This document shows positions 4,088-54,461 of a stretch of 54,539 nt of DNA, in pieces (position 1 is the stretch's first letter; the number at the start of each line of letters is the position of its first letter). The position numbers were made by a program, and so were the translations under genes. The stretch is from a virus. Taxonomy: Duplodnaviria > Caudoviricetes. Below the pieces are notes generated by a model that was not told where the DNA came from, did not search any database, and saw nothing but the letters and a program-made list of their open reading frames with translations. The stretch spans positions 1 to 54,539 of the IMG/VR virus record IMGVR_UViG_3300032214_000203; one strand, written 5' to 3'.

Positions 4088-4311
4088 TTGGTAAACTTAT
4101 TGGGATGTTCATGGGGCGCAAGCTCAAAGAGAAGGCTGTTGACGTGGTCTTGGACAAGGTGAACCTGCCTGACCCGGTGGAGAACGCAATCAAGGTTGCG
4201 GCCACTGGCAACGTCGGTGACCTGCTCGGCGGCATGGGCAAGGACATGGCGCAGGAAGCTGTGCTTGAACAGATCACCAAGAAGGTGCCGATCAAGAGAC
4301 CGAAGAAGTGA
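4084..4311 (+). CDS. Hypothetical protein
   Basis: ATGA overlap with upstream gene; AGGAG RBS. Confidence 0.6.
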   Translation: MIGKLIGMFMGRKLKEKAVDVVLDKVNLPDPVENAIKVAATGNVGDLLGGMGKDMAQEAVLEQITKKVPIKRPKK

Positions 4312-4715
4312 AGTGGCTTGGCATTCTCTTCCTGTCGGCCAGCCCCGCGCTGGCTGACCAGTATGAGATCACCCGCGTGATCGATGGCGACACGGTTGAG
4401 ATCGCCGTGGACTTCCTGCCGAAGCCCCTGCCACCCAAGCTGTCGATCCGCGTGATGGGCATTGATACACCCGAGAAGGCACCGCGCGCTCAGTGTGATG
4501 CCGAGGCAGCGTTGGCTAAGAAGGCAACCGCCTTTACCAAGCGGGCAGTTTCCGACGCCCTCGAGGTTGAAGTCGTGATCCTCAAGTGGGACAAGTATGG
4601 TGGCCGGGTGTTGGGCGAGGTCTACCTAGATCATCAGAGCCTCGCTCAAAGCCTGATCTCTGCAGGTCTTGCCCGTCCGTACAAGGGTGAAGCAAAACAA
4701 TCTTGGTGTGAATAG
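4308..4715 (+). CDS. SNase-like (thermonuclease) nuclease with signal peptide
   Basis: RVIDGDT, IRVMGIDTPE, DKYGGRVLG and LISAGLA motifs; N-terminal MKWLGILFLSASPALA signal. Confidence 0.85.
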   Translation: MKWLGILFLSASPALADQYEITRVIDGDTVEIAVDFLPKPLPPKLSIRVMGIDTPEKAPRAQCDAEAALAKKATAFTKRAVSDALEVEVVILKWDKYGGRVLGEVYLDHQSLAQSLISAGLARPYKGEAKQSWCE

Positions 4716-4724
4716 GAGCCGTAG

Positions 4725-5612
4725 ATGACCCTGCTAACCGTCGATCAACTGCGCGCCATGATCCCGACCAACAAGGAGGTCGAGGAGTGGTGTGAAGCAT
4801 TGAATGAAATGCTGCCGAAGTATGGCATCACCACCGACAAGCGCATTGCCAGCTTTGTCAGCCAGTGCGCCCATGAGAGCATGGACTTCCGCGTGTTGGA
4901 GGAGAACCTGAACTACAAGGAGTCCACGCTGCTGCGCGTGTTCCCGCGCTACTTTGGCCCCGGCAAAGAGAACGCCGCCGAATATGCGGGCAAGCCTGAG
5001 AAGATTGCCAACTATGTGTACATGGATAAGAACCGCTCCAAGGCGGGTGCTTTAGGCAACCAAAAAGATGGGGATGGTTTTTTATTCAGAGGAAAAGGTC
5101 TGAAACAAGTTACTGGCCGTGCGAATACGACCGCATTCGGCAAGACCGTTGGCATGACCGCCGAGGAAGCTGCTGAGTATCTCCTGACCAAGAAGGGCGC
5201 ACTTGAGAGCGCGCTGTGGTTCTGGGGTAGCCGCAACCTGAACGAGGTCGCAGACACGGGCGACGTGACACGTCTCACCAAAATCATCAACGGAGGCGAC
5301 ATTGGCCTCGCGGATCGCAAGGCACGCTATGCCAAGGCCATGGCAGCTATGGGCGGGGCTGTCACTGCGCCCGCTCCTGCCGCCTCTCCAGCGGCCTCCG
5401 TTGGAACTCTACGCAAGGGCTCAAAGGGGGATGCTGTCAAGAAGATGCAGGCTGCGCTTGGCATCAAAGCTGATGGAGACTTTGGGCCCGGAACAGAAGC
5501 TGCCGTTAAGAAGTGGCAGGCTGCCAATGGGCTAACGGCTGATGGCATCGTTGGCCCAAGGACTATGGAGAAGCTGTTCAGCAAAGCGCCCAAACAACAA
5601 AGGTTCAAATGA
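4725..5612 (+). CDS. Endolysin, GH19 (chitinase class I-like) with C-terminal peptidoglycan-binding domain
   Basis: [33 protein letters not shown]; C-terminal LRKGSKG..V..MQ..L...ADGDFGPGT...DGIVGP.T. Confidence 0.9.
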
Positions 5613-10763: not shown

Positions 10764-13700
10764 GTGGGTATTATCAGCGTACAAAGCCCAACGACAGGCG
10801 GAAGCTACTCTGTAAGAATTGCAGGTGATGTTCCTACCGCAGAAGAACAGCAGCGCATTGACGCATATCTCGCGCAGCAAGACGCCACGTTTGCAAGAAC
10901 TGCTAGTCAATTGTTTCCTAGTGTCGCTCCGGCAGAAGCGCCAGAAGCCCCTGTTGAGGAAGATGACGGCACGGCTATTGGCCGTGGCTTTCAGCGTGGC
11001 CTCCAAGGCATCCGATCCCTCACTGGCACCACAATCGAAGAGGCTGGGCGCGCTCTTGGTTTGGAGGGTGTGCAGGAATTTGGCCGCGGCATGGAGACCG
11101 CTGCCGAAGAGGAGTTCCGCAAACTCCAAGAAGTCAGGGCGCGAACTGGGCTGTATGATGTAGAGGATTTAAGTAGCGCCCTCACCTACGGCGGTGAGAC
11201 ATTCGGCGAACAGGCTCCGATACTTGCACAGACACTGGCTGGCACTGCCGCTGGTGCTGCCATTGGTTCTGCCGTTCCAATCGTTGGCACGGGGATTGGT
11301 GCTGTTGTCGGTGGTGCAATAGCATCTCTGCCCCTTTTGTTTGGCGGGAACGTCCAGCGGCAAGAGGAGCAGGTAGCGGCTGGCGAATTGGATGAGGTCA
11401 GCGTCCAACGTGCACTTGCGACAGCCATTCCTCAAGCTGCACTCGAAGGTATCGCTGGTAGAATCCTTGCGTTTACACCGCTGCGTCCCGGCGTAGGCAA
11501 CGTTTGGGCAAGGGCTGGCAAGGGTGGCGCGGCTGGTGTCGTGGCTGAAGTCCCAACCGAAATTACACAGCAGTTGCTGGAGCGTGCGCAAGCTGGCCTG
11601 CCCATCGACAGCGATGATGCTATCAAAGAATACGTCGAAGCTGGCGTGGCCGCTGGTATTCTTGGTGGCCCGATTGGTGCCGCTGGTGGTGTGGTGCAGC
11701 GTGATGTTGCGCCCAAGGAACTCGATGATGACTACAAAGAGTTAGCCCTTGAGGGTGATCGCAGGATTAAGTTTGCCGAGGAAACGGAGCGGCAGATTGC
11801 AGAAGATCGTGCGAAGGCTCTTGCCTCCGCTGGCATTGACCCTGATGCACCGCTTGGCATTGAGGGGCCGCAGCAACGCCTTGCGCTTCCTGCGCCTGAG
11901 ACTGTTGATATTGCGCCCGAGACCGCAATCGCTGACGAAGAGTTCGCTAACCTGAGCTTTAACAAGGCTCAGTATGAGCGTGTGCTGCAGCAGGTAAAGG
12001 CCGACATTACCAGCGGGAAGAAGATCAACATCCCTGCAATCCAACAGCGCGTAAAGGCTGACATGCCTGATGTTACCGTACCCAAGGTGCGTGACATCAT
12101 GAAGGAGCTTCAGGCTCGCGACTTTGTCGTGGAAAACCCGGTAGCAAAAAAGAACAAGTACGTCGCCAAGAACGCTCTGGCACCGGAAGTAAACACGCCT
12201 GACGTTTCTTACCGCCGACAGATTGATACTGCCGCAGACTTCATCAAAGCGGATCAGTCAAAGCTGGAGCGCCTGCGCTATGACCTGCAGGCGGCAGAAG
12301 CATATGGTCGCGATCTAAATGGCAACAAGGTTACGCCGGATCAGGTGAACGCAGAGATCGCCCGCACAGAGCAGGGCATTGCGAAGAGCCAGCAAAGCAT
12401 TGAGCTTGCAAACCAGCGCCTCAAGACACTGGGCCGCGACACGCACGTCCCCCGCATTGAGAAGGTAGGCCTGCCGCCCAGCATGAAGGCTGTGCCTGTC
12501 GCTGAAGCCACACCGGATGCCCTTCGACCGCGCTTTGAGGCACAGCAGAGCGCCATTCGCGGTATGAAGGAGCAGATCACTTCCGTTAACAAACAGGTTA
12601 GCAAGCTCAACGAAAACGCCAAGAAGCGCACTTTAAGTTCTATTGAACTTGATCGCATGCAGAAGCTGCAACAGCAGCAAGCTGAGTTGTCTACGCGCCT
12701 TGGAGAGGCACAGGCAAACCTGAAAACACCTGAGAAGATTTTTCAGGAAGCAAAGGGTGAGCAATTCCGTGAGCAAGAACGGCAGCGTGAGATTGAGCGT
12801 AAGCTTATTGCAGCCCGCGCTCGTGCGGCAGCGGATCAGGTTAAAGCGCAGGAAGATCAGGGTGTGTCTCCGATCTCTTCAGCGTTCAATGCGAAGCAAG
12901 CGAATGTTCTCAAATCTCTCCAAACTCGACTGAACAATCTCGGCCTCAAAGATGTAAAGCTTGAGGGCGCACAAAGGATTGAGGGTGCTGAGGGCATGTT
13001 TGATCCAGTTACCAAGGTGCTTAGCCTTGGTATGGGCCTGTATGATCCGAAGATGACGGATCAACAGTTGTTCGATGCCACCTCTGAGGTGATGAACCAT
13101 GAGGTGGTTCATGCGCTGCGGGCTATGGGTTTGTTCAAGCCCAATGAGATGAAGACTCTCGAGCGTTTTGCAGAGAAGACCAAGTACGTCAAACGTACAA
13201 AAGACGGTACGCAAAAGCGGAACTACACATACCTTGACCGTGCAAATAAACTGTATCCAGACCTCACTCCGACACAGCAGAAAGAAGAAGCCTTTGCGGA
13301 AATGTTTCGCGACTACACGGCTGGCCGTCTGAAGCTTGGTGGTGGGCCGCGTGCTTTCTTCGAGAAGATCAAGAAGTTCTTCAAGGCTCTAATCGGTGCG
13401 AACGTTGATCAGGGCTTCACCCGTGTGGAGGATATCTTCCAAGGCATCCGCCGTGGTGAGATTGGTGCCCGTGATCGTGTGGCACCTGCCGCACCCGCTG
13501 CGCAACCTGCCGCCGCTGCGCCGATGCAGTCACGCATCCCTGCTACGGAAGAAGACATTCGCCCGCAGCAAGACATCCGCATGCCAATCAATCCAAACCT
13601 GCCGAACGATCAAGTGCGGGCACAAATTCAAAGGCTCACAGACCAGAACCGCCCCCTCGTTAAGCGGCTGATCAAGCGCATCGACGAGCGGTTCGGCACC

Positions 13701-16700
13701 AAGTCTGGCGACAATGTTAAAGACCTGTCCAAGGTCACGCAGAAGGCGCGTCGTCCCTCTATCTTGGCAGCTAAGCCATGGCATGATGTGTCGCACATCC
13801 GCGACAGCTACCGCTTCAAGACAGTGGTCGATGACTTCCGTAATGTGCCCGCCATCTTTGACGAGCTTTTGGCTGATGGCGTTGGCCTCGTGAAGATCGA
13901 TACCAACAAGCTATTCGCGCCGAAGGAGTGGGGCTGGCGCATCATTGCGTTCGATCTGCGCATGCCGAACGGCCAGCTTGTTGAGTGGTATTTGCCGCTC
14001 AAAGAACTTGAAGCAGAGAAGAAAGCCAAAGGCCACCTCATCTTTGAGGAGTGGCGGAACAAGACGCAGGAAGAGCTTTCCGCCCAGCGCGATGAATACT
14101 TCGCGTCAATCCGGCGCAGCTATGAGGGCTACGATCAAGCCTTCCAAGCAGCACTGGATCGCATGGGCGTCAGCCGTCAGGAAGCGGAAGCCTCTTGGAG
14201 AAGCGCAGAGAGTTCGTTGCTCGACGCTGCACGGAACGCCCGGAGATCGTCCGGCGTGGGGATTTCTTCCGCAGCAAGCGCAGAGACTGGCTTGACGGCA
14301 CCATCCATGGTGCGCACTGCAGTGGAGCCGTCCGCTCCGTATATGATGGCACGCCCAGTGCCGTCCTCGACCAGTGCAAAAGCTTCTGCCATTGTATCTA
14401 CCTCCGATGATTACATGCCGGACGCACCTGCAGAGGAGCGCCCCTTGTTCTCTAGGTTGCCTCGCTCCTCGATGGTAGCGGGCCTGCGGGACTTTATCAA
14501 AAATAATCCCGATGGTTTCACCATTGACTCTACCACATTCGACCCTGCCGCTGGCGGGTTTGTTGTGGCACCCCTAAAGGAAGCCGAAATAATTGTCGGA
14601 GAGTCCTTGCCAGAAGAGGTTCTACTAGGTTATATAGAGGATAACAAGGATATTGCAAGGGCAATCAATCGTCCCGTCTACTTGGGGGGATGGTTCGACA
14701 GCCAGAGCCAGCAGTACTTCTTGGACAACACACTGATTGTTCCCACTGCGGAAGAGGCGTTGTACATCGCCGAAGCTGCAGACCAGTTGGCAATCTTTGA
14801 CCTGAATAACTTTGAGGAGATCAGGACAAATGCAGGAATCGAACGACTCAAACAAAGTGGAACTTATCGGGGTGACGCCGCAGTCGGATACCAAAGAAAC
14901 CTTGCGGAGGTTGGTCGCCGCTTTGCGCAAGCAAGGGATCAACGTCGTGCCCGCATCCAAGAACAGCTTGTTGGAGGACTAGAGCGTCCGCGCCAGTCGC
15001 GCCTCGTTGTGCCGCTGACGCCCGAGCAGCGGTCGGCAAGCATCATCGACTACCTCAATCCGAACACTGGCAAGCCGCTCTTCAAGAAGAAGCCCGGAAG
15101 TGAAACGCTGGTAAGCTTTGCGAATAAGTTGCTGGAGCTTCGTGGCACCCGCACATACGACATCGTTAACTCTGAAGCGGATCGTCGTGAGATTGCGCAG
15201 ATCATGGCTGCAGAGGCAGAGGCTGCGCTTCTGTCGAGCCGCGATGCGCTGGGCTGGTATGACAGCACACTGAAGTTGGCGAAGCAAATCCTGTACCCTG
15301 TGTACCCAGAGATTTCGCCCACTCGTCCCGACGGCACCCCCAACCGGATGCACGATCCTGCAGCGGAGCATGCCTTCGACTACGCTACGGCAGTCACATC
15401 CAACGGCATGGCTGTCGTGGACAACTACCAGTTTGCGTCAGAGCAGTACGATGCGTGGAAGGCGAGCCCCGATGGCAAGTTCCCTGTCGTTGGCAAGGGT
15501 GATCAGGGCGGCTCAATGCTGTCTGCGTTTGAGTTCTGGAATGCGCTTGTCGATGTAGGGTACGACTCAAATCAAATCTCTCAGCTACTCACAACGCAGT
15601 TGCCACGCTCAGAGGTTAACAACATTCTGAAGGAAGTCTTTGGTGTTCGTCGTCTGGCAGACCTGCCAGTTCAAGCTGACACCAAGGAAGAGGCTGACAC
15701 CGTTGTGTCGGTGGCATACGTCATTGGCCCGAAGATTGGCAACGGCTTCTACCAAAACCTGCGTGGGAACTTCAACCCTCTGACAATGGATCGCTGGTGG
15801 ATGCGCTTTGTAAATCGCATCACCGGGAACCCGCTTGTGATCCACACCGAGGAGAGCCTTGGCAATACGTTCAACAAGCTGTGGAACTACGTCAGCAATC
15901 CTGATGGCCTGACAAATATGGAGCGCGACATTCTTCGTCGTGCCCAAGAAAACCTGAACATGACCAAGCTGGAAAGAAGTGACATTGCACTTTTGTCTAG
16001 CGAGATGGACAAGGTTTGGAACAAGGAGTTCTTCAACAAGGCCTACAACGACAAGCTCCGCGACCTTCAGAACGAAGGCATGGACTTTGAGATTGTGAAA
16101 GGTTCTGTGCGCGGCCCGGATGCCGAGCGCGTCAAGCGCCTTGCTCGTGAGGCTCGCCCCGAAAAGCCAGCCATGTCCAAGGCGGCGACCACCCTTGTGA
16201 AGAAACTGAAGCCGTCTCTTGAGGAGGCACCTCGCAACGCACCTGATCGCACCGCTATGCGTGATGCAGCAAATCGTGCCCGCGAAATCCTAAGACGTGA
16301 CCTTGGCGTCGAGCTTACCAATGCCGACTTCCAAGCCCTCATGTGGTACGCAGAGAAGCGCATCTTTGATGCTGGCGGCGTGAAGCGTGGGCGCGGTGAG
16401 GACAATGACTATGCGGATGGTGCGATTGCCATCGCCAAAGCGAAGGGAATATCCGATGCAAAAATTGAAGCCGCACTCCCCGAGGCAGAACGAGGCCGAG
16501 TCCGTGGTGTCGAATCTCAACTCGCAGGAGATCAAGATGCTGGCGGCAGGGTTGGCGAACTGGTTCGAGAACCAGAAGCGGGAGACTTCTTCGCCCCAAG
16601 AAGACTGACGCTCGTCCCTGAGGATGACACTATCGAAGCGAACATGACGCCCAGAGAACGGGCTGAGGTTCGTCAGGCACTGCAGGGCGCAGAGATCGAT

Positions 16701-19700
16701 CAGGAGATGCCGAGGCAGATGTACTCGCGCATGCCCGTGGCTGAGGCATACATGCCCACTCGTGCGCCTGTAGACAACAAGGCTGGCCCGACACCGATCT
16801 ACGGTTCCATCATGGAGCGTGGCCGCTTGTTGCCCGTTGTTCTGCCGAAGGGTTCGCACCGCGTCTATGAGAGCGGTATCGAGGTTGGCAATGGACTGTT
16901 CCATATCCAACAGCGTCAGCACGACAGGGAGCTTGTCGAGAACTCCAAGTACAAGCGCGTAGAGAATGCCATCTATGACCTGATGCGCCGTTGGCAGAAT
17001 CAAGGCTATGAAGATGGCGAGTCTGTCGTCGGCTACAACAGCCGCGACGGTATTGTGCTTGAATGGCGGAACAACCTTGCCTTCAGTTCTCCTCCCCTCC
17101 TTCTCGTTCTTGAGCGTGGCAGTGAGGTGCAAGGCGCTCCACTGCGTGATGCCTACTACGTCAAGACATTCTTCCCCGTCCTGAAGAAGAAGGATCGCGC
17201 AGCACCAGAGCGCAAGGCACAACAGCAGCGTCTCTATAGCCGCCTGTATTCCACCACTGCGACACTGGCACCACAGGTCAAAGCCAAGACCCTGAAGCTG
17301 GACTATGCGCGTGCGGCAGACTTCCTTGCAAAGGGTCTGCGCGTTGTGGTCACGCCCGACAAAGCGCAAGCCGCAGCCGACACGATCCTTCGCAAGTTCC
17401 AAGACAACATGCTGCCCGTTGGCCGCATGATCCAAGAGCTACAGGCCAAAGGCCTGACGATTACCGACGCCATGGATACCTATCTGAAGGAAGAGTTGTA
17501 TCACGGCGTTGTTGGCAACGAACTGAACCGTCGTGAAGAAGGCATCTACAAGGACGCTCTCAATGCAGTGAAGGCACTGAATGTGAATGCTGGCATGCTC
17601 GATGGGCTGCAGCGTGCATCTGATGCTGCGTCTGGCACTGGGGATGGCTTTGTGAAACAGGCGCGCCAGTCGGCTGGCAGCGACAAGCTGGCCTTGGCTG
17701 AAGCGTACCTCTACGCCAAGCATGCGAAGGAGCGGAATGCCTACATCCGTACCATCGATCCTAAAAACGACAGTGGCTCAGGCATGCAAGACGCAGAGGC
17801 TGACGCTATCCTGCGTTGGTTCTCTAGCTTGGATGCTTCCAATGCTGCGGCAATAGCCAACCTCAACACTGCAGCCCGTGGCATTGTGGCTGACACCAAC
17901 CGGGTTCGCGTTGACAGCGGGCTGATCCCTGATCAATTCGACCAGATTGTGGATGAGGACGGTCAGGTGATTAACCGCCCAGAGTACGACTTCTTCGTGC
18001 CTCTGCGTGGTATCTACGACCCTGAGGCTGCGGAGTCTGACGGCACCACTAGCGCCGCTGGCGGTCAGCTTTTTGGCGGAAGGGGTCGCCCCGATCCTCG
18101 TGCCCTTGGCCGCTACAAGTATGCCACTGACGTACTGGCAAACCTGATTAATCAGAACCAACAATCTGTATCTCGTGGCGAGCGCAACAAGGTCGGCCAA
18201 TCGTTCTTGGAGTTGCTTCGTGCAAACCCATCAATGACAAAGGCATACGCAGAAATTCTGACGAAGACGCCCAAGCGCCGCGCACTGAGGAGCGGGCGTG
18301 TGCGTGAGATCACTAACTTCGCTGCGGCACAAGACCCGAACATCTTTGTCGTGAAGGAAGACGGCAAGGATGTGTACGTCGAGCTGTTCAACCCGAACCT
18401 TGGCGCTGCGCTCAAGGGTGACAACGGCGTTGGCGCTGGCGCTCTAGGCTACATCGTGCGGTCTATGGGCATGGTGAACCGCTACCTGTCCAACATCAAC
18501 ACGTCCTATAACCCCGAGTTCTTCATCACCAACTTCCTTCGCGACTTGCAAGCTGCAGGCGTAAACATCCAACAGTTCGACGAGCAGGGTCTGACAACTC
18601 AGATCGTCAAGGATGTGCGCAAGGCTCTCGCTGGGATCAAGCGTTCCATCCGCAACAAGGACGACTCGTCCGAGTGGTCTCAGATTTACAGAGACTTTGT
18701 GAATGCTGGCGGTCAGAACGTCACGAACCAGATGTCTACCGTCGCAGATCAGATGGATAACATCCGCAGTCTGGTCGGGGATATCTCCGACAAGGGTGCC
18801 CGTGGCAGGTGGAACCAAGTTAAAAACAGCTTCGTCGGTAAAGGCGCTGGCTCTCTTCTGAGCTTTATCGAAGACTACAACACGGTGGTCGAAAACGGCA
18901 TCCGCGTTGCGACGTACAAGACGCTGCTCGACCGTGGGTTCACGCGCGAGAGGGCGGCACAGGCGGCTCGCAACGTGACTGTGAACTTCGCCAAGGGTGG
19001 CGAGTACAAGTCATTCCTGAATGCGTTCTACCTGTTCTACAACGCGTCTCTGCAGGGTTCGTTTGCCCTTCTGAATGCGGCACTGCGTTCGCGTAAGGTG
19101 CAGGGTATCTGGGCTGGCGTGATTGCTGCGGGCTTCCTGCAGGATCAACTGAATGCCTTGCTGTCCGATGAGGACGAAGACGAAGACAAGCAGTATGACA
19201 AAATTCCAGACTACATTCTGGAACACAACTTCATCCTGCCCGATCCGTTCGGCTTTACAGATCGCTCTTACATCGCCATCCCCATGCCGTATGGCCTGAA
19301 CATGGCGCACAACATTGGTCGCGCAACAAGCCGTGCATTGCGCGGTGAGTACGATGCAGGCGAGGCGACGGGCAGCATCGTTGGGAATATCGTTGACACC
19401 ATCAACCCGCTTGGTGGGTCTGAAAGCTTTGCAAACTTTGTTGCGCCAACCGTGGTCGATCCGTTCATTGACATCATCGAGAACGAAGACTTCGCGGACA
19501 AGCCGATCTTCAAGGAAGCATTCCCCGGAGATCGCGGGCCCGACAGTCAAAGGTACTGGGCAACGACAAACCCATCTGCAATCTGGGTGGCGCAGAACAT
19601 CAACTCTCTCACTGGTGGCACCTCTGCTATCCCCGGCTTCATCGATGCATCTCCAGATGTCCTGAACTTCTGGTTGGAGTTTGCGACAGGTGGTGTCGGT

Positions 19701-20126
19701 CGCTTCGTGCAGCGCACGGCAGAACTTCCTGTCCGCGTTTACGAAGAGGGTCTGAATGACGAACTCTACCGAGAGGTGCCGTTCGTTCGTAAGATCATTG
19801 GCAGCGTATCGACTCGCGAAGACTACGGTCGCTACATCGAAAAGCGCAATGCGATCTTGCTGGCAGGGGATGAAATCAAAGAGGCCATCGACAATCAGGA
19901 TCGTGAGCGCGCGCTTGCTGCTCGTGAAGAGTTTGCCGAAGAGCTTCGCTATCTTCCCCGCGTTCGTGCAATCGACAACGCGATCCGTCAGGTGAACCAG
20001 CAAATGAACAAGCTGCGCGACAACCGCAACATGCCCGATGAGCAAAAGCAGGCTATCATGGATCGTCTCGATGAGCGCAAGCAGGCGCTGATCTTGCGTG
20101 GCAATCAAATCCTGATGGACTACTGA
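10764..20126 (+). CDS. Giant polyvalent internal virion protein (metallopeptidase, RelA/SpoT-like, SAM-lyase-like, HhH-like, PBECR-like, LPD38-like domains)
   Basis: 3120-aa ORF. HEVVH..EEAFAE; VK...K..K..D..R..GW..VE..GH; GGW.D..YFLD..Q.AIFDL; GPK.....NL.G....TMD.W..QA..W; G.GLFHI...H; C-terminal EN..R......NF...G....N.FYLFYNA..QG..IPMPYG. Confidence 0.85.
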   Translation: MGIISVQSPTTGGSYSVRIAGDVPTAEEQQRIDAYLAQQDATFARTASQLFPSVAPAEAPEAPVEEDDGTAIGRGFQRGLQGIRSLTGTTIEEAGRALGLEGVQEFGRGMETAAEEEFRKLQEVRARTGLYDVEDLSSALTYGGETFGEQAPILAQTLAGTAAGAAIGSAVPIVGTGIGAVVGGAIASLPLLFGGNVQRQEEQVAAGELDEVSVQRALATAIPQAALEGIAGRILAFTPLRPGVGNVWARAGKGGAAGVVAEVPTEITQQLLERAQAGLPIDSDDAIKEYVEAGVAAGILGGPIGAAGGVVQRDVAPKELDDDYKELALEGDRRIKFAEETERQIAEDRAKALASAGIDPDAPLGIEGPQQRLALPAPETVDIAPETAIADEEFANLSFNKAQYERVLQQVKADITSGKKINIPAIQQRVKADMPDVTVPKVRDIMKELQARDFVVENPVAKKNKYVAKNALAPEVNTPDVSYRRQIDTAADFIKADQSKLERLRYDLQAAEAYGRDLNGNKVTPDQVNAEIARTEQGIAKSQQSIELANQRLKTLGRDTHVPRIEKVGLPPSMKAVPVAEATPDALRPRFEAQQSAIRGMKEQITSVNKQVSKLNENAKKRTLSSIELDRMQKLQQQQAELSTRLGEAQANLKTPEKIFQEAKGEQFREQERQREIERKLIAARARAAADQVKAQEDQGVSPISSAFNAKQANVLKSLQTRLNNLGLKDVKLEGAQRIEGAEGMFDPVTKVLSLGMGLYDPKMTDQQLFDATSEVMNHEVVHALRAMGLFKPNEMKTLERFAEKTKYVKRTKDGTQKRNYTYLDRANKLYPDLTPTQQKEEAFAEMFRDYTAGRLKLGGGPRAFFEKIKKFFKALIGANVDQGFTRVEDIFQGIRRGEIGARDRVAPAAPAAQPAAAAPMQSRIPATEEDIRPQQDIRMPINPNLPNDQVRAQIQRLTDQNRPLVKRLIKRIDERFGTKSGDNVKDLSKVTQKARRPSILAAKPWHDVSHIRDSYRFKTVVDDFRNVPAIFDELLADGVGLVKIDTNKLFAPKEWGWRIIAFDLRMPNGQLVEWYLPLKELEAEKKAKGHLIFEEWRNKTQEELSAQRDEYFASIRRSYEGYDQAFQAALDRMGVSRQEAEASWRSAESSLLDAARNARRSSGVGISSAASAETGLTAPSMVRTAVEPSAPYMMARPVPSSTSAKASAIVSTSDDYMPDAPAEERPLFSRLPRSSMVAGLRDFIKNNPDGFTIDSTTFDPAAGGFVVAPLKEAEIIVGESLPEEVLLGYIEDNKDIARAINRPVYLGGWFDSQSQQYFLDNTLIVPTAEEALYIAEAADQLAIFDLNNFEEIRTNAGIERLKQSGTYRGDAAVGYQRNLAEVGRRFAQARDQRRARIQEQLVGGLERPRQSRLVVPLTPEQRSASIIDYLNPNTGKPLFKKKPGSETLVSFANKLLELRGTRTYDIVNSEADRREIAQIMAAEAEAALLSSRDALGWYDSTLKLAKQILYPVYPEISPTRPDGTPNRMHDPAAEHAFDYATAVTSNGMAVVDNYQFASEQYDAWKASPDGKFPVVGKGDQGGSMLSAFEFWNALVDVGYDSNQISQLLTTQLPRSEVNNILKEVFGVRRLADLPVQADTKEEADTVVSVAYVIGPKIGNGFYQNLRGNFNPLTMDRWWMRFVNRITGNPLVIHTEESLGNTFNKLWNYVSNPDGLTNMERDILRRAQENLNMTKLERSDIALLSSEMDKVWNKEFFNKAYNDKLRDLQNEGMDFEIVKGSVRGPDAERVKRLAREARPEKPAMSKAATTLVKKLKPSLEEAPRNAPDRTAMRDAANRAREILRRDLGVELTNADFQALMWYAEKRIFDAGGVKRGRGEDNDYADGAIAIAKAKGISDAKIEAALPEAERGRVRGVESQLAGDQDAGGRVGELVREPEAGDFFAPRRLTLVPEDDTIEANMTPRERAEVRQALQGAEIDQEMPRQMYSRMPVAEAYMPTRAPVDNKAGPTPIYGSIMERGRLLPVVLPKGSHRVYESGIEVGNGLFHIQQRQHDRELVENSKYKRVENAIYDLMRRWQNQGYEDGESVVGYNSRDGIVLEWRNNLAFSSPPLLLVLERGSEVQGAPLRDAYYVKTFFPVLKKKDRAAPERKAQQQRLYSRLYSTTATLAPQVKAKTLKLDYARAADFLAKGLRVVVTPDKAQAAADTILRKFQDNMLPVGRMIQELQAKGLTITDAMDTYLKEELYHGVVGNELNRREEGIYKDALNAVKALNVNAGMLDGLQRASDAASGTGDGFVKQARQSAGSDKLALAEAYLYAKHAKERNAYIRTIDPKNDSGSGMQDAEADAILRWFSSLDASNAAAIANLNTAARGIVADTNRVRVDSGLIPDQFDQIVDEDGQVINRPEYDFFVPLRGIYDPEAAESDGTTSAAGGQLFGGRGRPDPRALGRYKYATDVLANLINQNQQSVSRGERNKVGQSFLELLRANPSMTKAYAEILTKTPKRRALRSGRVREITNFAAAQDPNIFVVKEDGKDVYVELFNPNLGAALKGDNGVGAGALGYIVRSMGMVNRYLSNINTSYNPEFFITNFLRDLQAAGVNIQQFDEQGLTTQIVKDVRKALAGIKRSIRNKDDSSEWSQIYRDFVNAGGQNVTNQMSTVADQMDNIRSLVGDISDKGARGRWNQVKNSFVGKGAGSLLSFIEDYNTVVENGIRVATYKTLLDRGFTRERAAQAARNVTVNFAKGGEYKSFLNAFYLFYNASLQGSFALLNAALRSRKVQGIWAGVIAAGFLQDQLNALLSDEDEDEDKQYDKIPDYILEHNFILPDPFGFTDRSYIAIPMPYGLNMAHNIGRATSRALRGEYDAGEATGSIVGNIVDTINPLGGSESFANFVAPTVVDPFIDIIENEDFADKPIFKEAFPGDRGPDSQRYWATTNPSAIWVAQNINSLTGGTSAIPGFIDASPDVLNFWLEFATGGVGRFVQRTAELPVRVYEEGLNDELYREVPFVRKIIGSVSTREDYGRYIEKRNAILLAGDEIKEAIDNQDRERALAAREEFAEELRYLPRVRAIDNAIRQVNQQMNKLRDNRNMPDEQKQAIMDRLDERKQALILRGNQILMDY
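14177..14392 (-). CDS. Nested antisense small protein, candidate antitoxin of the RelA/SpoT-like module
   Basis: 71 aa; GGAGGT 7 nt before ATG; not in codon register with the host gene; the host frame is Ser/Ala-rich linker here. Confidence 0.6.
   Translation of the reverse strand: MAEAFALVEDGTGRAIIYGADGSTAVRTMDGAVKPVSALAAEEIPTPDDLRAFRAASSNELSALLQEASAS
14830..14982 (+). CDS. Nested +1-frame small protein following the SAM-lyase-like module
   Basis: MQESNDSNKVELIGVTPQSDTKETLRRLVAALRKQGINVVPASKNSLLED*, 50 aa; GAGGAG at 14814-14819. Confidence 0.5.
   Translation: MQESNDSNKVELIGVTPQSDTKETLRRLVAALRKQGINVVPASKNSLLED
16456..16608 (+). CDS. Nested +1-frame small protein following the HhH-like module
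   Basis: MQKLKPHSPRQNEAESVVSNLNSQEIKMLAAGLANWFENQKRETSSPQED*, 50 aa; AAGGGA 7 nt before ATG. Confidence 0.45.
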   Translation: MQKLKPHSPRQNEAESVVSNLNSQEIKMLAAGLANWFENQKRETSSPQED

Positions 20127-29547: not shown

Positions 29548-30675
29548 TTATGCTGCCTTCAGGTAGGTCGTCTCACCCCAAGGCGCTGCTGTTGCGTGGC
29601 TCCAACTCGACACCCACAATGTCGGATAGCTGGGTTCCTCTTCAGGATAATCCCAAACTTGCAGGTCACTCAAGTAAACCATGTTGTCCACCTCTAGCTC
29701 GTTATCTTCGATGTACTGGAACACGGGCGAGACCATCGTGCCGCCGCGACCGCCGACGTGTATCTCATCGATCACCTCGCCGCGCTCATAGCGCCGCACT
29801 GTCCGCACCTTTGTGTCGCAGGTGATGACCGTGACCGACGCTGGCATGATGTCCTCGCTGATCGCGTTCAACTCGCCAAGAAACTGTGTCAGTTCGCCAT
29901 GCGACACCGACCCGCTGGTGTCTATGCCGATCACCACGTTGCCAGCGCCGATCCTCTGGATTGAAGGCGCGACGATGCCAGCCATGTGATACATCGCACG
30001 CTGCGGTCGGCGCATGCTGTAGTCGTCGGGTTGGTCGCCACCAATGAACCGCCGCATGACATCACGCCAATCAACCTGCGCCTTCTTCATTTGCTGGATC
30101 ATCTGATCGATCTTGAGTGGCAGCTTGCCGACAGCCTTGGCTGCGTTCGCCGCCATCATGACCTTGCTGTCGATGCTGGCTTCCATCTGCTGCTGTTCAG
30201 CGTTCGACAGTTCCTTCCCGCTCTTGCCCTTGGCATCGACCACCTCGCCAAAGCCACTGCCCTTTGCCTTCTCGCCTATGTTCTCAGGCAGTCGGTCGTA
30301 AGCAGCCTCGGCGCTGAGGTCTTTGTATTGCTCATCCATCAGCGCACCCATTGGCAGGATGAACCCACCCTCGAACAGGATGGGGTTGATGACGTAGTCG
30401 CAGGCATAGTTCCAACGCTCAGGATCACGCAGCCCACGCCGCAGCATGTGCTTCATCACGATGTGCATGACCTCATGTGCCAGCACGCCAATGCATTCGT
30501 CTGGCGTCATCCGATCCACGAAGTCGGGCGACCACATGATGGACAGCCCGTCCGTACACATTGTCGGGATGGTCGGATCAGGTGAGACCTTCACCGACAG
30601 GCACAACGATCCAAAGAACGGGTGCCGCACCACCAACTGGGTGATGGCACGGGACATCTTCATTTGTGCGTCCAT
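29548..30675 (-). CDS. Metallopeptidase-like + vWA domain protein (DUF2201-like)
   Basis: TMCTDG, LAHEVMH, WNYACDYVIN, IDTSGSV (MIDAS), GRGGT; start MDAQ after GGAGG. Confidence 0.85.
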   Translation of the reverse strand: MDAQMKMSRAITQLVVRHPFFGSLCLSVKVSPDPTIPTMCTDGLSIMWSPDFVDRMTPDECIGVLAHEVMHIVMKHMLRRGLRDPERWNYACDYVINPILFEGGFILPMGALMDEQYKDLSAEAAYDRLPENIGEKAKGSGFGEVVDAKGKSGKELSNAEQQQMEASIDSKVMMAANAAKAVGKLPLKIDQMIQQMKKAQVDWRDVMRRFIGGDQPDDYSMRRPQRAMYHMAGIVAPSIQRIGAGNVVIGIDTSGSVSHGELTQFLGELNAISEDIMPASVTVITCDTKVRTVRRYERGEVIDEIHVGGRGGTMVSPVFQYIEDNELEVDNMVYLSDLQVWDYPEEEPSYPTLWVSSWSHATAAPWGETTYLKAA

Positions 30676-30753
30676 GTTTTCCTCCAAAAAGTTCAAGTGA
30701 ACTAAAAACCCCGTAGATTTTGCTAGCAAATTTCATTCGGGGTTTAGTTTTGT

Positions 30754-31773
30754 TTACAGGATCAGGTTCTTGCCCACGGTCATGATCCAATCGCGCACAG
30801 GATCGACCTGCTTCAGTGACTTGTCGCGCGACAGTGCATCCTTGACCACGAAGGCAGCGAACTCTTGCTGCGGCAGGCGCATCAGGTACTTGATCACGTT
30901 GCCTGCGTTCTTGGGGTTCATCTTCACCGACAGCGCAGCGCAGATGGCGTACATCACAGCCGGGTCTTGGCTGATCATGGCCCCCATTGGGTTGGCAATC
31001 AGTTCGTCCATGTCCGGCACGATGCTGTACATCTCAATGAACCCTGTGAAGTCAGCCGTTGCACCGCGCCCGACCTGACCCGCCAGTGCCTCGCGTTCGT
31101 TCACCGGGCTGAGGCCCCATGACATGATCGATGCCACCCGTTCCCACGAACGTGGCGATGGGCATGCGTTCGCGTCACGGTCGAACTTGTGCAGCCACTC
31201 GGGGCGGAAGCGAAGGAAGGCACACACCCGCTCGTCGATCTTCTTGTTGTAGAAGTACTGGATGGTGTCTTCGAGGTCGGCCTCGACCTCAAGGAACATC
31301 AGGCGATCCTTGAGGTGGGACGGCATGGTGTTGGTGCCCGCACGATCTGAGGTGCGGTTGCCAGCGGCGACGATCACCCACCCCTCGGGCAGTTGATGCG
31401 GGCCGACCCGGCGTTCGTTGACGATCTGCGCCGCGATGTTCTGGTTCGCGGTCGGTGCCTGAGGCAGTTCGTCGAGGAACATAACGCCTTTGCCCTCGGT
31501 CGGCATCCAATCAGGGCGCATGCGGATCATGCTCTCGCCGTCCTTTGATGGGACAGGCCAGCCGCCCAGTTCGCCAGCGTCGTACTGTGCCAGCGACAGG
31601 ATGCTGCACTGCATGTCCATGCTTGCCGCCACATCCTTGACAACAGTTGTCTTGCCTAGGCCAGCGCCACCGATCAGGTAGGGCACAACGTACTGCGCAT
31701 CGCGTGCGTTCTTCAGGCTAAGGGCGTGGGTGATGGCCTTCTCGACAATGGCCTGTGCTTGGGAAAGTTTCAT
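30754..31773 (-). CDS. MoxR-like AAA+ ATPase
   Basis: Walker A GGAGLGKT, Walker B FLDE, AAGNR, L.DR, PSPRSWE. Confidence 0.88.
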   Translation of the reverse strand: MKLSQAQAIVEKAITHALSLKNARDAQYVVPYLIGGAGLGKTTVVKDVAASMDMQCSILSLAQYDAGELGGWPVPSKDGESMIRMRPDWMPTEGKGVMFLDELPQAPTANQNIAAQIVNERRVGPHQLPEGWVIVAAGNRTSDRAGTNTMPSHLKDRLMFLEVEADLEDTIQYFYNKKIDERVCAFLRFRPEWLHKFDRDANACPSPRSWERVASIMSWGLSPVNEREALAGQVGRGATADFTGFIEMYSIVPDMDELIANPMGAMISQDPAVMYAICAALSVKMNPKNAGNVIKYLMRLPQQEFAAFVVKDALSRDKSLKQVDPVRDWIMTVGKNLIL

Positions 31774-42350: not shown

Positions 42351-42719
42351 ATGTACACGGGTGAGACAACGACAGACGAGCGCGTAGCGTCTAAACTACC
42401 GCAGCCTCAAGGATACAAAGTCCTTATTGGCGTCCCAGAAATCAGCGAAAAAACCGAAGGTGGTGTCTTCATGCCGGATGGCTTGAAGTCTGCTGAAGAG
42501 ACAGCGTCAATTATTGGCTTTGTCATGAAGGTTGGGCCTGATGCCTACAAAGACGAAAACAAGTTCCCGAACGGCGCTTACTGCAAAGAAGGCGACTTCG
42601 TGATCTTCCGTTCGTACTCTGGCACGAGATTCAAGATTCATGGGAAAGAGTTTCGACTCATCAACGACGACACCGTGGAAGCGGTTGTTGACGATCCAAG
42701 GGGGTATAGCCGAGCATGA
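42351..42719 (+). CDS. groES: Co-chaperonin GroES-like protein
   Basis: P.GYKVLI, EKTEGGVFMP, VMKVGPDAY, GDFVIF..YSGT, LINDD.V.AVV. Confidence 0.88.
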   Translation: MYTGETTTDERVASKLPQPQGYKVLIGVPEISEKTEGGVFMPDGLKSAEETASIIGFVMKVGPDAYKDENKFPNGAYCKEGDFVIFRSYSGTRFKIHGKEFRLINDDTVEAVVDDPRGYSRA

Positions 42720-52487: not shown

Positions 52488-53081
52488 ATGCAGGAGCAGC
52501 TTGTGGAAAAAGCTGCCTGCGTTTATTCCGTGACCAATAAGGTTAACGGAAAAATGTACATTGGCGTGACTGTTGAATACGAACGTCGGCAGCGCAGCCA
52601 TCTTAAACACAACATCAGAACCCGGTCGCTGCTCAAAAAGGCTGTCGCAAAATACGGGGAAGAGAACTTTGTGTTTAAGGTTCTTTGCATCGGAACGAGG
52701 GACTACTGCTATCTCGTGGAACCCCGGTTCATAGCTGCGTACAACACCCGCACGCCTGAAGGGTACAACATCTGCTCTGGCGGAAAAGGTTCCAAGGGCT
52801 TGCTTGCAGAGTACAACGGGATGTACGGTAGAACCGGCGAGCTCCACCCGCACTTTGGCAAGCCCGGGTACAGGAAAGGTATTCCTCACACAGAGGAAAC
52901 AAAACAGAAGATGCGGGAGGCGCATCTAGGTAAGGTTTTCTCCGAGGAGACTCGGAGGAAGATTAGCGAAAACGCTAAGAAAAGGCCTGAGCACATGGCC
53001 AAGATGTGGGAGGCGGCACGAGTGGCTTGCGAAAAAAGAAAACTCTTGGCCATGAAAACGCCCCTAAAGGACGAGGAGTAG
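52488..53081 (+). mobile_element. Free-standing GIY-YIG homing endonuclease with NUMOD3 repeats
   Basis: VYSVTNKVNGKMYIG, R..SH, E, GYN; HTEETKQKMREA and FSEETRRKISE. Confidence 0.85.
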
Positions 53082-53084
53082 ACC

Positions 53085-54461
53085 ATGACTACGTCCCAAG
53101 GCGGCTACGTCGACGGCGGCTTTGACCTTCTGAAAGCCCCCGACGCCCCGACCATCACGTCTGTCACGAACGGCATCGGAACCATGTCCGTGGCATTCAC
53201 TGCGCCCGCCAACCCCGGCGGAAGCGCGGTCACGGGCTATACGGTCACGGCGATCAACGAAAGCACCGGGGCATCCGTCGGCGCGACTGGGTCGGCGTCT
53301 CCGATTACTGTAGCCACGGGCGCAGGCACCTTTAGGGTTCGATCTGCCGCAACCAACATCTATGGGCCGGGTCGGGTGTCTGCGTTCAATACTGGGAACG
53401 TGGTGTTTTCTGGGGCGAGCTTGTGGAGCTGGGGCGAGAACAGCGTCGGCGCAGTTGGCGATGGAACTGTCATCAACCGCTCAAGCCCCGTTCAAATTGG
53501 TGCTTTAACTACTTGGGGCTTTGTTTCTAGTAGTCGCGCTACAAAAACCGCTCTAAGAGCCGATGGAACCCTATGGGCTTGGGGGCAAAATGCTTTCGGC
53601 GCCTTGGGCCAAAACAATACTATCAATAGATCAAGTCCCGTTCAGATCGGTGCTTTGACAAACTGGTCGAAGTCGTCGGCCTCTGTGAACCATGTCGTGG
53701 CGACTAAGTCTGATGGTACGTTATGGTCTTGGGGAAATAACAGCTCCGGAGAACTTGGAGACGGCACAACTGTCAACAAATCTAGTCCCGTTCAAGTCGG
53801 CGCACTCACCAATTGGGCTCAGGTTTCCGCTGTTTCCGGTGTTACAGCCGCTATCACAACTACTTCACAGTTGTGGACATGGGGTTCTGGAAGTTATGGT
53901 CGCCTCGGGCAAAACAGCACCGTTAGCCGATCCAGCCCCGTTCAAATCGGCGCACTCACCAATTGGGCTCAGGTTTCTGTGGGCGAATCAACGGGTGCGC
54001 AGCATGCAGTAAAAACAGATGGTACACTTTGGGGGTGGGGAAGATATATTGGCGATGGAACTGCGACATTTCGTTCCAGCCCTGTTCAGATCGGCACCCT
54101 TGCAGACTGGGCTCAGGTCTCTTGCGGTGCAAGCGGAGAACATACGTCGGCCATCAAAACGGATGGGACTCTTTGGTCTTGGGGTATAAACACTTTTGGA
54201 CAACTTGGAGACGGCACCACAAGCAATCGACTGAGCCCCGTGCAAATCGGCATTCTGACAAATTGGTCTCAGATTTCAACCTCTGGGCTCGCCGATGTGT
54301 TTGCGGTAAAAACGGACGGCACTCTTTGGGCATGGGGACGAGGAACTGATGGTGACCTTGGTGACAACACAAATGCCAACAAGAGCAGTCCCGTTCAGGT
54401 CGGTGCCCTTACATCATGGTACTTGGTGAGCAACACCCTCGCCCTCTACGGAGTAACCTAA
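53085..54461 (+). CDS. FN3 + RCC1/BLIP-II beta-propeller repeat protein
   Basis: AP.APTI..V..F.AP..GGS.VTGY FN3; seven repeats of DGTLW.WG.N..G.LG....SSPVQ.G.LT.W. Confidence 0.88.
   Translation: MTTSQGGYVDGGFDLLKAPDAPTITSVTNGIGTMSVAFTAPANPGGSAVTGYTVTAINESTGASVGATGSASPITVATGAGTFRVRSAATNIYGPGRVSAFNTGNVVFSGASLWSWGENSVGAVGDGTVINRSSPVQIGALTTWGFVSSSRATKTALRADGTLWAWGQNAFGALGQNNTINRSSPVQIGALTNWSKSSASVNHVVATKSDGTLWSWGNNSSGELGDGTTVNKSSPVQVGALTNWAQVSAVSGVTAAITTTSQLWTWGSGSYGRLGQNSTVSRSSPVQIGALTNWAQVSVGESTGAQHAVKTDGTLWGWGRYIGDGTATFRSSPVQIGTLADWAQVSCGASGEHTSAIKTDGTLWSWGINTFGQLGDGTTSNRLSPVQIGILTNWSQISTSGLADVFAVKTDGTLWAWGRGTDGDLGDNTNANKSSPVQVGALTSWYLVSNTLALYGVT

Follow-up and report, generated by a model that had tools for sequence, protein, structure and literature searches.

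The window analyzed here is the whole of virus record IMGVR_UViG_3300032214_000203, 54,539 bases of an SU10-like phage with an estimated completeness of 92%. It contains a gene for a giant polyvalent protein, seen in the list of open reading frames (ORFs) and its translation as an open frame of 3120 residues on the plus strand (10764-20126). Two elements of this gene are considered in this study. One is a RelA/SpoT-type small-alarmone-synthetase-like domain, residues 935-1150 (13566..14213, plus strand; boundaries from 107 and 231 homologues), and the other is a nested antisense ORF of 71 codons and a stop (14392-14177, minus strand), recognized from the ORF list and by homology to free-standing genes, which encodes a candidate Tis1-like immunity protein. 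Its overlap with the giant gene takes in the final 12 codons of the domain and the adjoining Ser/Ala/Pro-rich linker (residues 1139-1210 of the giant protein). We are slightly inclined to regard these ~215 nt as a conserved dual-coding stretch, in which a Tis1-like immunity protein is translated antisense inside the gene of a giant virion protein, an arrangement retained at over 80 loci in phages and prophages of many clades.

The five motifs by which the earlier note had recognized the domain are all present in the plus frame of 10764-20126, namely NVKDLSKVTQKARR (residues 984-997, 13713-13754), IRDSYRFK (1012-1019, 13797-13820), PKEWGWR (1053-1059, 13920-13940), VEWYL (1073-1077, 13980-13994), and GHLIFEEWR (1090-1098, 14031-14057). 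The domain lies where that note had placed it (13600..14170), with a slightly wider conserved extent of 13566-14213. The synthetase-like stretch is a mobile module of giant polyvalent proteins. With residues 935-1150 as a query, 107 proteins of 1716-5460 residues were matched among 2232 candidates, and the module of ~215 residues stands at very different positions in them, accompanied (by precomputed Pfam assignments) by ART-PolyVal, DdrB-ParB, methylase or helicase, RadC, InPase, and other domains. Profile A1 was built from 33 diverse copies, 38-61% identical to the window copy; among 1.84 billion representative proteins it has 1318 matches at E<=1e-3, of which 464 reach 1e-10, and 289 clusters at 1e-30. 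Pattern scans yielded 29 loci in species genomes, all of them metagenome-assembled genomes (MAGs) of many phyla, and 61 loci in viral contigs. All relatives of the domain that were seen come from metagenomes or MAGs, and tblastn found no match to it in 50,697 cultured-phage records or 72,556 plasmids.

The AlphaFold model of the domain has a predicted local distance difference test score (pLDDT) of 95.9 and a predicted template modelling score (pTM) of 0.88. Foldseek returned 65 matches in the PDB at E<=1e-3, the best with E 1.5e-7 and probability 1.00; all 23 entries listed belong to the RelA/SpoT family, and SaEAS, RelP, RelQ, Tas1, and CapRel have E-values from 1.5e-7 to 1e-5. In VIA-align, small alarmone synthetases score Z 15.2-14.2. 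The highest Z scores are those of SaEAS (8vx3_B; Z 15.2, root-mean-square deviation (rmsd) 3.1, 185 residues aligned), RelP 6fgk_D, and RelQ 5ded_B (both 15.0), followed by Tas1 (13.1), CapRel (12.1), long Rel/RelA/SpoT enzymes (8-11.5), and FaRel2 (8.2). The best other nucleotidyltransferase of the Pol-beta type reaches Z 8.1, so that the model has the synthetase fold, a central antiparallel sheet with flanking helices, as distinct from other Pol-beta nucleotidyltransferases. The earlier note made its proposal of a RelA/SpoT-like domain depend on this fold, which the profile search, Foldseek, and VIA-align all predict.

Sequence profiles point the same way. Searched against 177,635 PDB sequences, profile A1 hits B. 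subtilis RelP (6fgk_A) first, with E 4.8e-4 and the motifs in register; the unrelated SdcA is second (E 0.016), and two sequences of S. aureus RelP follow at E 0.14 and 0.19. The Pfam family RelA_SpoT (PF04607) weakly matches 8 of the 33 A1 members (best E 0.0012) and is the sole family matching more than two of them. The domain as a single sequence found chance matches only among PDB sequences. The closest matches from the viral structure library are fragments of large proteins from uncultured phages; identity is at most 20%, and some of these proteins are named RelA/SpoT, DdrB-like, or ART-PolyVal-like. From the fold and the profile evidence taken together, homology of the domain to RelA/SpoT synthetases can be taken as established, with one failed hhalign test, given below.

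The active site can be read against S. aureus RelP, in which the donor adenine is stacked between R78 and R112, the phosphates are bound by K80, S84, K88, and R91, Mg is held by D107 and E174, the ribose by H190, and the acceptor base by Y151 of the G-loop (PMC5794853); the corresponding residues of FaRel2 are described in the same roles (PMC11782079). According to the A1/HMMER and hhalign alignments, the window has N984, K986, K990, K994, R997, D1014, K1019, W1058, E1074, and H1091 at RelP sites. Residues were counted over 215 unique copies of the domain. The triphosphate motif K986-x7-K994-x2-R997 (13719..13754, plus strand) aligns with K80, K88, and R91 of RelP, and K986, K994, R997, D1014, E1074, and R1098 are kept in all 215 copies. 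Position 984, the first Arg of the classical RxK, is Asn in 125 copies and Ser in 80, and never Arg; the Ser position of the RxKxxxSxxxKxxR motif varies across the family. The next strand, H1011-I-R-D1014-S-Y-R1017-F-K1019 (13794..13820, plus strand), carries the predicted Mg-binding Asp, D1014 corresponding to D107 and K1019 to R112 of RelP; R1017 is kept in 214 copies and position 1019 is Lys in 195. This D1014 is the Asp of RDSYR singled out for mutation in the earlier note, and it indeed aligns with the Asp to which Mg binding is ascribed in S. aureus RelP (PMC5794853).

The acceptor side is more divergent. The G-loop P1053-K-E-W-G1057-W1058-R1059 (13920..13940, plus strand), the acceptor-base site, aligns with P146...G150-Y151-R152 of RelP, and position 1058 remains aromatic (Trp in 195 copies, Phe in 17, Tyr in 1). 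The strand L-V-E1074-W-Y1076-L (13977..13994, plus strand) holds the predicted catalytic Glu, with ExQ replaced by ExY (position 1076 is Tyr in 206 copies and Gln in 9). By hhalign, E1074 falls on the Glu of EVQIRT, and in the domain model it lies within the strand 138-142; the HMMER alignment to 6fgk places E1074 on an upstream Glu instead, so that E1074 is the probable rather than the certain catalytic Glu. The helix G-H1091-L-I-F-E-E-W-R1098 (14031..14057, plus strand) takes the place of the ribose-binding His, H1091 corresponding to the His of EHKIYYK in RelP; it is kept in 214 of the 215 copies, and hhalign moves it by five residues. H1011, R1013, R1017, D1046, D1064, and an MPNGQ turn are invariant or nearly so and have no counterpart in RelP.

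Thus D1014 on strand 2 and E1074 on strand 4, the latter matched by hhalign and by its position in the strand, are the predicted Mg-binding Asp and catalytic Glu, whereas Trp 1058 and Tyr 1076 predominate where a synthetase has the G-loop Tyr and the Gln of ExQ. The two substitutions that the earlier note had read from the window, GY to GW and ExQ to ExY, hold family-wide in the 215 copies. Its description of the active site as deviant applies to the base pockets, with both stacking arginines lost, Tyr replaced by Trp, and Gln by Tyr, and does not apply to the catalytic Asp and Glu, the Lys/Lys/Arg set, and the His, which are kept. Judged from these alignments, the residues predicted to bear the chemistry are intact and both base pockets are remodelled. 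An inactive domain, which that note had left as an option, is unlikely in view of the residue invariance and of the dedicated, probably inhibitory partner gene described below.

Two further divergent proteins were seen in MAGs. A 366-codon minus-strand frame of an Obscuribacter MAG (L036) encodes a divergent RelA/SpoT-like protein with a KTGWR G-loop and EIQVQP (Pfam RelA_SpoT, E 9e-5), so that the G-loop Trp is not unique to the polyvalent family. A 470-codon frame of an actinomycete MAG (L035:3408-5389) has a C-terminal RelA_SpoT domain (E 4.6e-16) which reads ASVQVRT at the ExQ place; in this protein the catalytic Glu seems to be replaced by Ser.

Relatives of the domain also occur as solo genes, and each of these synthetase-like genes is adjoined by a conserved small gene of 71-83 codons. 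Enzyme and small gene are found in four arrangements. The small gene is divergent upstream in eight loci (L007, L008, L009, L011, L013-L016), convergent downstream in L019, on the same strand directly downstream in L020, L021, and L023-L025, or nested antisense, as in the window. It is kept beside the synthetase in 14 free-standing cases and nested in 51 unique loci, the adjacency expected of an immunity gene. A profile built from 12 sequences of the free-standing small genes only (profile A5) matches antisense ORFs in 18 more loci (E 4e-13 to 0.03), on the strand opposite to the giant gene and starting ~150-200 nt past the domain. After two profile iterations, 72 sources were matched, including the window at E 1.3e-5.

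Altogether, 76 of the 83 loci with enough downstream DNA match the small-protein profile. In six of the remaining seven, L006 being the exception, the antisense frame is open at the same place, and in four of these six the same protein is recognizable. A small partner stands next to the gene or within it at 80 loci or more. In the protein database the small protein forms 30 clusters, all unnamed and without a Pfam family; a few copies have been called as genes, and these are 74-96% identical to the window copy. The linker (14214-14392, plus strand, residues 1151-1210) is the only flank of the domain common to otherwise unrelated polyvalent proteins, and the antisense ORF accounts for its conservation better than the linker as such does.

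The solo synthetase-like genes are closed frames of ~265 codons in Obscuribacterales and other Melainabacteria-type MAGs. For instance, the solo gene L015:5974-6765 (plus strand) is accompanied by the partner L015:5678-5893 (minus strand), and likewise in L007, L008, L009, L011, L013, L014, and L016. The solo genes of the Obscuribacterales type, several per genome, share a Lys/Glu-rich C-terminal tail with KEDDL[LMT]R and have the divergent partner ~80 nt upstream; gene and partner have the appearance of chromosomal toxin-immunity modules. A second, more divergent small gene on the minus strand stands in tandem behind the first one in three loci (L008:5454-5597, L011:5385-5549, and L013:5457-5621; tblastn E 1e-7 to 8e-6). 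In L024, of the Melainabacteria type, an in-frame stop at ~6483 interrupts the domain after ...GIYEQ, and the downstream frame and the partner gene go on; this is either a pseudogene or a sequencing error.

The antisense ORF of the window has the signals of a translated gene. Its ATG is preceded at a distance of 8 nt by GGAGG (14401..14405, minus strand). The same is seen among the 51 unique embedded loci, with an ATG within five codons of the expected start in 40, a Shine-Dalgarno-like motif in 41, and GGAGG in 33; the background over 9444 other ATGs of the same strand is 5.0% for Shine-Dalgarno-like motifs and 0.56% for GGAGG. A promoter-like site, TTGATA and TACCAT with a 17-nt spacer (14472..14500, minus strand, a pattern match ~80 nt upstream of the antisense ATG), agrees with the consensus at 9 of 12 positions and is a weak signal; the region has two such sites, against 0.5 expected from shuffles.

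Frame conservation was compared over 14 sequences of the window's clade, with near-duplicates removed. In the overlap, conservation is higher for the antisense than for the sense frame (identity 0.633 vs 0.574, BLOSUM62 3.04 vs 2.58), whereas in the neighboring domain the sense frame is better conserved than the antisense one (0.739 vs 0.625, BLOSUM62 3.97 vs 2.82). The same comparison in the free-standing copies gives 0.463 vs 0.424 (BLOSUM62 2.16 vs 1.37). More distant clades show almost no difference between the frames (0.292 vs 0.289), and the alignment used there may be biased towards the antisense frame, on which it was built. The two frames share their wobble positions, and antisense stops need Tyr, His, or Gln codons in the sense frame; for these reasons a codon-position strand test was dropped, as was the openness of the antisense frame as evidence.

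The model of the 71-residue product, made from an alignment of 42 homologues, has a pLDDT of 87.6. Tis1, the immunity protein of Tas1 (6ox6_B), ranked first for it in three listings: Foldseek against the PDB, VIA-align over a set of 48,161 representative chains, and a VIA second look. Each of these matches is weak; more telling is that the protein in first place happens to confer immunity to an enzyme from the same superfamily. A complex modelled for a homologous pair, the L015 solo enzyme and its small neighbor from Obscuribacter, scored 0.67 (runs of 0.65, 0.67, and 0.82), the best of three controls scoring 0.01; the mark used for this score is reached by 58 of 80 solved complexes and by 2 of 110 mismatched pairs. 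Contact agreement was at least 52% and partner pLDDT at least 83. The modelled interface is centered on residues 125-132 of the solo enzyme, which are its G-loop, and includes residues 171-172, the equivalents of W1097 and R1098. For this solo pair, the model supports binding of the small protein at the G-loop, the acceptor site.

Assignment of the giant protein to the phage polyvalent proteins, in the sense of PMC5512222, follows from its LPD38 domain, its virion-structural match, and the position of its gene. LPD38 (Pfam PF18857) was found at residues 2808-2990 (19185..19733, plus strand; E 1.8e-37), in keeping with a polypeptide of 3120 residues that combines unrelated domains; the N-terminus (residues 43-314) matches a PHROG of virion structural proteins, and the C-terminus matches phrog_14770/616/10691, three PHROGs of no assigned function. 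The gene is the last one of a same-strand structural block (a permuted module), after the terminase, portal, capsid, and adaptor genes, and thus lies among late virion genes: small and large terminase subunits, an SU10-type portal, two SU10-type adaptors, and the capsid protein. The gene place, the PHROG, LPD38, and the prediction published for such proteins (PMC5512222) make it plausible, as the earlier note proposed, that the giant protein is packaged in the virion and delivered by injection. Upstream of the synthetase-like domain, residues 779-783 read HEVVH (13098..13112, plus strand), a segment kept in 59 orthologues with EEAxAEMF downstream. The HExxH region has no Pfam match, and from its motifs it is possibly a zincin-type processing peptidase. 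In a search for a fixed neighboring domain, segments of the giant protein matched just its ~60 orthologues.

The analysis shows the fold, the residue conservation, and an antisense ORF that is conserved with its translation signals and homologous to free-standing partner genes. Beyond this, we put the chances at about even that the window encodes an active, divergent domain like those of the toxic small alarmone synthetases (toxSAS), which uses an adenosine acceptor, is injected, and is inhibited by a Tis1-like protein encoded antisense. On this interpretation catalysis, the acceptor, inhibition by the small protein, packaging, injection, and proteolytic release would proceed as follows. Residues 935-1150 would be a Mg-dependent pyrophosphokinase transferring the beta-gamma pyrophosphate of a nucleoside triphosphate to a 3'-OH, most likely that of an adenosine nucleotide, giving (p)ppApp as with Tas1/Apk1, Apk2, and FaRel. 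We favor this acceptor with modest confidence on account of the dichotomy described in PMC11782079, where the (pp)pApp synthetases Tas1 and FaRel are neutralized at the acceptor site by Tis1-like proteins, and the tRNA-pyrophosphorylating enzymes are blocked at the donor site by zinc-finger-like domains. The giant protein would be a late product that is probably packed into the capsid and leaves it together with the DNA, as the gene context and PMC5512222 suggest, and the domain could act in the newly infected cell, perhaps once released by the upstream HExxH peptidase-like region. The 71-residue antisense product would cover the G-loop and keep the enzyme harmless in the producing cell or, if the phage is temperate, in a lysogen with a silent late strand. 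The phage might gain by shutting off the host, by interfering with nucleotide pools or signals, or by antagonizing related phages.

A number of observations weigh against this interpretation. On the side of the enzyme, both adenine-stacking arginines of RelP and FaRel2 are gone family-wide (Asn or Ser at 984, Lys at 1019), so that the donor base or even the chemistry may differ. PF04607, matched in 11 of 14 control genomes, has no match in the window protein (E up to 1) or in the window (0.001); scans of the domain and the whole protein with Pfam, PHROGs, and NCBIfam gave nothing relevant for the domain; and hhalign of A1 against a profile of five long RelA/SpoT enzymes from MAGs was not significant (probability 0.4, E 0.15), even as it paired K986, D1014, PKEWGW, and E1074 with the canonical motifs. 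On the side of the small protein, the Tis1 match is weak by Foldseek (E 1.0, probability 0.63, template modelling (TM) score 0.53) and by VIA-align (Z 3.9, rmsd 3.7, 61 residues aligned), an unrelated chain at Z 3.5 being a tie by the rule of the tool, and the small-protein profiles found nothing among PDB sequences and Pfam. The modelled complex is that of the Obscuribacter solo pair and not of the window's own pair, and its score may in part reflect a known likeness rather than binding, since the Tas1-Tis1 complex is solved. Profile A5, built on partners only, missed the window's own ORF, and the iterated profile that found it is partly circular, as antisense translations enter it.

Further points concern expression and purpose. 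An open antisense frame is expected from composition in a Ser/Ala/Pro-rich linker, where Tyr, His, and Gln codons are rare, and the nearest relatives of the window have Val or Ile where the small protein otherwise has a near-invariant Trp. Contigs from RNA libraries are scattered, strandless pieces, none from a metatranscriptome running over 14177-14392, and speak neither way. No gene for a (p)ppApp hydrolase or another HD-domain protein was found in the window, and depletion of ATP at entry looks costly for the phage.

Two other explanations of the enzyme agree that it is active and differ in the acceptor. In one it uses GDP/GTP, or both purines like the exported enzyme SaEAS, and the injected domain would shut down host rRNA and growth transcription by a (p)ppGpp burst, a role proposed for the RelA/SpoT domains of polyvalent proteins by Iyer and colleagues (PMC5512222). 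The structurally nearest enzymes by Z, SaEAS (15.2) and RelP/RelQ (15.0), are (p)ppGpp makers, SaEAS making both alarmones (PMC12691689), and the G-loop keeps an aromatic residue with the flanking Pro, Gly, and Arg of RelP. Still, a Z of 13.1 for Tas1 against 15.0 for RelP does not separate substrates, the Gln of ExQ and both adenine-stacking arginines differ from all aligned (p)ppGpp synthetases, and Tis1-like partners at the acceptor site are so far tied to (pp)pApp makers (PMC11782079), so we hold this acceptor to be distinctly unlikely. Pyrophosphorylation of the tRNA 3' CCA end, as by FaRel2, CapRel, and PhRel2, would stop host translation at entry. It is compatible with the likeness to CapRel (Z 12.1) and FaRel2 (Z 8.2), with an altered G-loop and base pocket that permit a changed acceptor, and with the existence of a phage-borne tRNA-targeting enzyme, PhRel2 of phage Lily (PMC11782079). 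Such enzymes are known to be neutralized at the donor site by zinc-finger-like domains (PMC11782079), whereas the partner modelled here sits on the G-loop, and a translation block at entry would also hit the early proteins of the phage itself; we consider a tRNA target very unlikely. Least probable is a pseudoenzyme, or a nucleotide-binding or structural module devoid of pyrophosphokinase activity. The missing Pfam signature and the loss of the RxK Arg, the D-x4-R Arg, the G-loop Tyr, and the Gln of ExQ would fit it, but all 215 of 215 copies, diverged to ~40% identity, keep the metal-binding Asp and Glu together with the three basic residues that bind phosphate, and at 80 or more loci a dedicated small partner has stayed next to the gene or within it.

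For the antisense ORF, the alternative is an untranslated relic, left when an ancestral fusion read through a convergent immunity gene arranged as in L019, the stretch now being a flexible linker only. That the frame is open by composition (shared wobble positions and a linker without Tyr, His, and Gln codons), that the partner-only profile misses the window copy, and that the conserved Trp is lost in the nearest relatives would all be explained in this way. A relic, however, would not be expected to keep a correctly placed ATG (40 of 51 loci) and GGAGG (33 of 51, with a background of 0.56%). Likeness to the free-standing homologues persists between clades that share only 40-50% identity in the enzyme domain, conservation is higher in the antisense than in the sense frame, and the window ORF folds at pLDDT 87.6. 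Taken together, these observations make a relic unlikely.

The system shares features with several known ones. In Tas1/Apk1-Tis1 (a type VI effector and its immunity protein, PDB 6OX6) and Apk2-BcTis1, as proposed for the window, a toxSAS domain is fused to a delivery module and accompanied by a small immunity protein that acts at the acceptor site, Apk2 being carried on a phage capsid-associated MuF protein (PMC10083569; PMC11782079). There is no match to Tas1/Tis1 at the sequence level, and the window has ExY for ExQ and Trp for the G-loop Tyr; its domain is in the middle of a protein of 3120 residues, whereas those of Tas1 and Apk2 are C-terminal, and its candidate immunity gene is nested antisense, whereas theirs follows the toxin gene. 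Compared with RelP/RelQ (SAS2/SAS1) and SaEAS (6FGK, 6EWZ, 5DED, 8VX3), the whole fold is alike (165-185 of 216 residues aligned, Z 14-15), and the catalytic Asp and Glu and the Lys/Lys/Arg triphosphate cradle are common to all. Identity is, however, 13-18%, Arg78 and Arg112 are replaced by Asn/Ser and Lys, extra invariant residues are present, and the window domain is part of a polyprotein where the others are free homotetramers. With FaRel2, CapRel, and PhRel2 the domain shares the toxSYNTH fold (Z 12.1 for CapRel and 8.2 for FaRel2) and the link to phages; their antitoxin is zinc-finger-like and acts at the donor site (PMC11782079), whereas the modelled partner of the family described here is on the acceptor loop.

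RelA/SpoT domains in giant phage proteins were described by Iyer, Burroughs, Anand, de Souza, and Aravind in 2017, with a prediction of co-injection with the DNA, and LPD38 and RelA/SpoT are both listed there as phage-type-only domains (PMC5512222). Like the proteins of that survey, the window protein has a RelA/SpoT-type domain inside a giant multidomain protein among virion genes; it differs in belonging to a family below the Pfam RelA_SpoT threshold, and the part of that paper available to us makes no mention of a partner gene. The earlier note overlooked both this prior description and the antisense ORF abutting the domain. Phage polyvalent proteins with RelA/SpoT domains, toxins fused to MuF, and Apk2 with its Tis1-like immunity have all been described before (PMC5512222, PMC10083569, PMC12691689), and the core idea of the earlier note is therefore of a known kind. 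What is new is a large family undetected by standard models, and hence missed by annotation pipelines, with a distinct active-site signature, and its pairing with a small Tis1-like partner. The arrangement, with the partner nested antisense inside the toxin-bearing gene, appears to be new as well: in a full-text literature search, at the level of listings and the beginnings of abstracts, no paper was found on the domain family or on an immunity gene nested antisense in the gene of a toxin domain. With both its donor and its acceptor pocket remodelled, the family could bring a new substrate to this class of enzymes.

Whether prokaryotes have functional antisense overlapping protein genes is disputed, chiefly on the ground that the candidates are young and have no homologues. 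The pop gene antisense to ompA and the long overlapping genes of P. aeruginosa are likewise protein ORFs wholly embedded antisense (PMC7103648, PMC8850804). As described in these papers they are young and taxon-restricted, whereas the window ORF has free-standing homologues, occurs in at least 80 loci of phage clades, and would be tied in function to the domain that it overlaps. The occurrence of the same small protein both free-standing and embedded offers an internal control and a direct test, namely whether it neutralizes the neighboring domain. If the dual-coding interpretation is true, toxin domain and antidote travel between polyvalent proteins as one indivisible cassette, which would explain how a toxic module is shuffled among these proteins without death of the producing cell, and gene callers would routinely overlook immunity genes hidden in large phage genes.

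Other genes of the window include a peptidoglycan hydrolase, the recombination genes Sak, exonuclease, and RusA, and a primase-helicase; no integrase was seen among them, and a search of the window at E 0.01 or better returned no gene for an HD-type hydrolase, a Nudix protein, or MazG. DNA nearly identical to the window was present in 17 runs (at least half of the sampled words) from 12 studies of freshwater, wetland, lagoon, and sludge, and the window may itself derive from one of these runs. In the block of virion genes upstream of the giant gene, a staphylococcal-nuclease-like gene (4308-4715, plus strand) and the gene of the peptidoglycan hydrolase, which has a PG_binding_1 domain (4725-5612, plus strand), encode proteins that are possibly co-ejected. 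An adjacent pair in the early or middle region (29548-31773, minus strand) encodes a MoxR-like AAA ATPase and a DUF2201 metallopeptidase-like/VWA-like protein. A GroES/Cpn10-like co-chaperonin gene (42351-42719, plus strand; Pfam Cpn10, E 1.1e-13) stands between the portal and capsid genes. Finally, a GIY-YIG/NUMOD3 homing-endonuclease-like gene within the structural block (52488-53081, plus strand) is followed by a gene for an RCC1-repeat protein (53085-54461, plus strand), which may be a tail fibre or receptor-binding protein.

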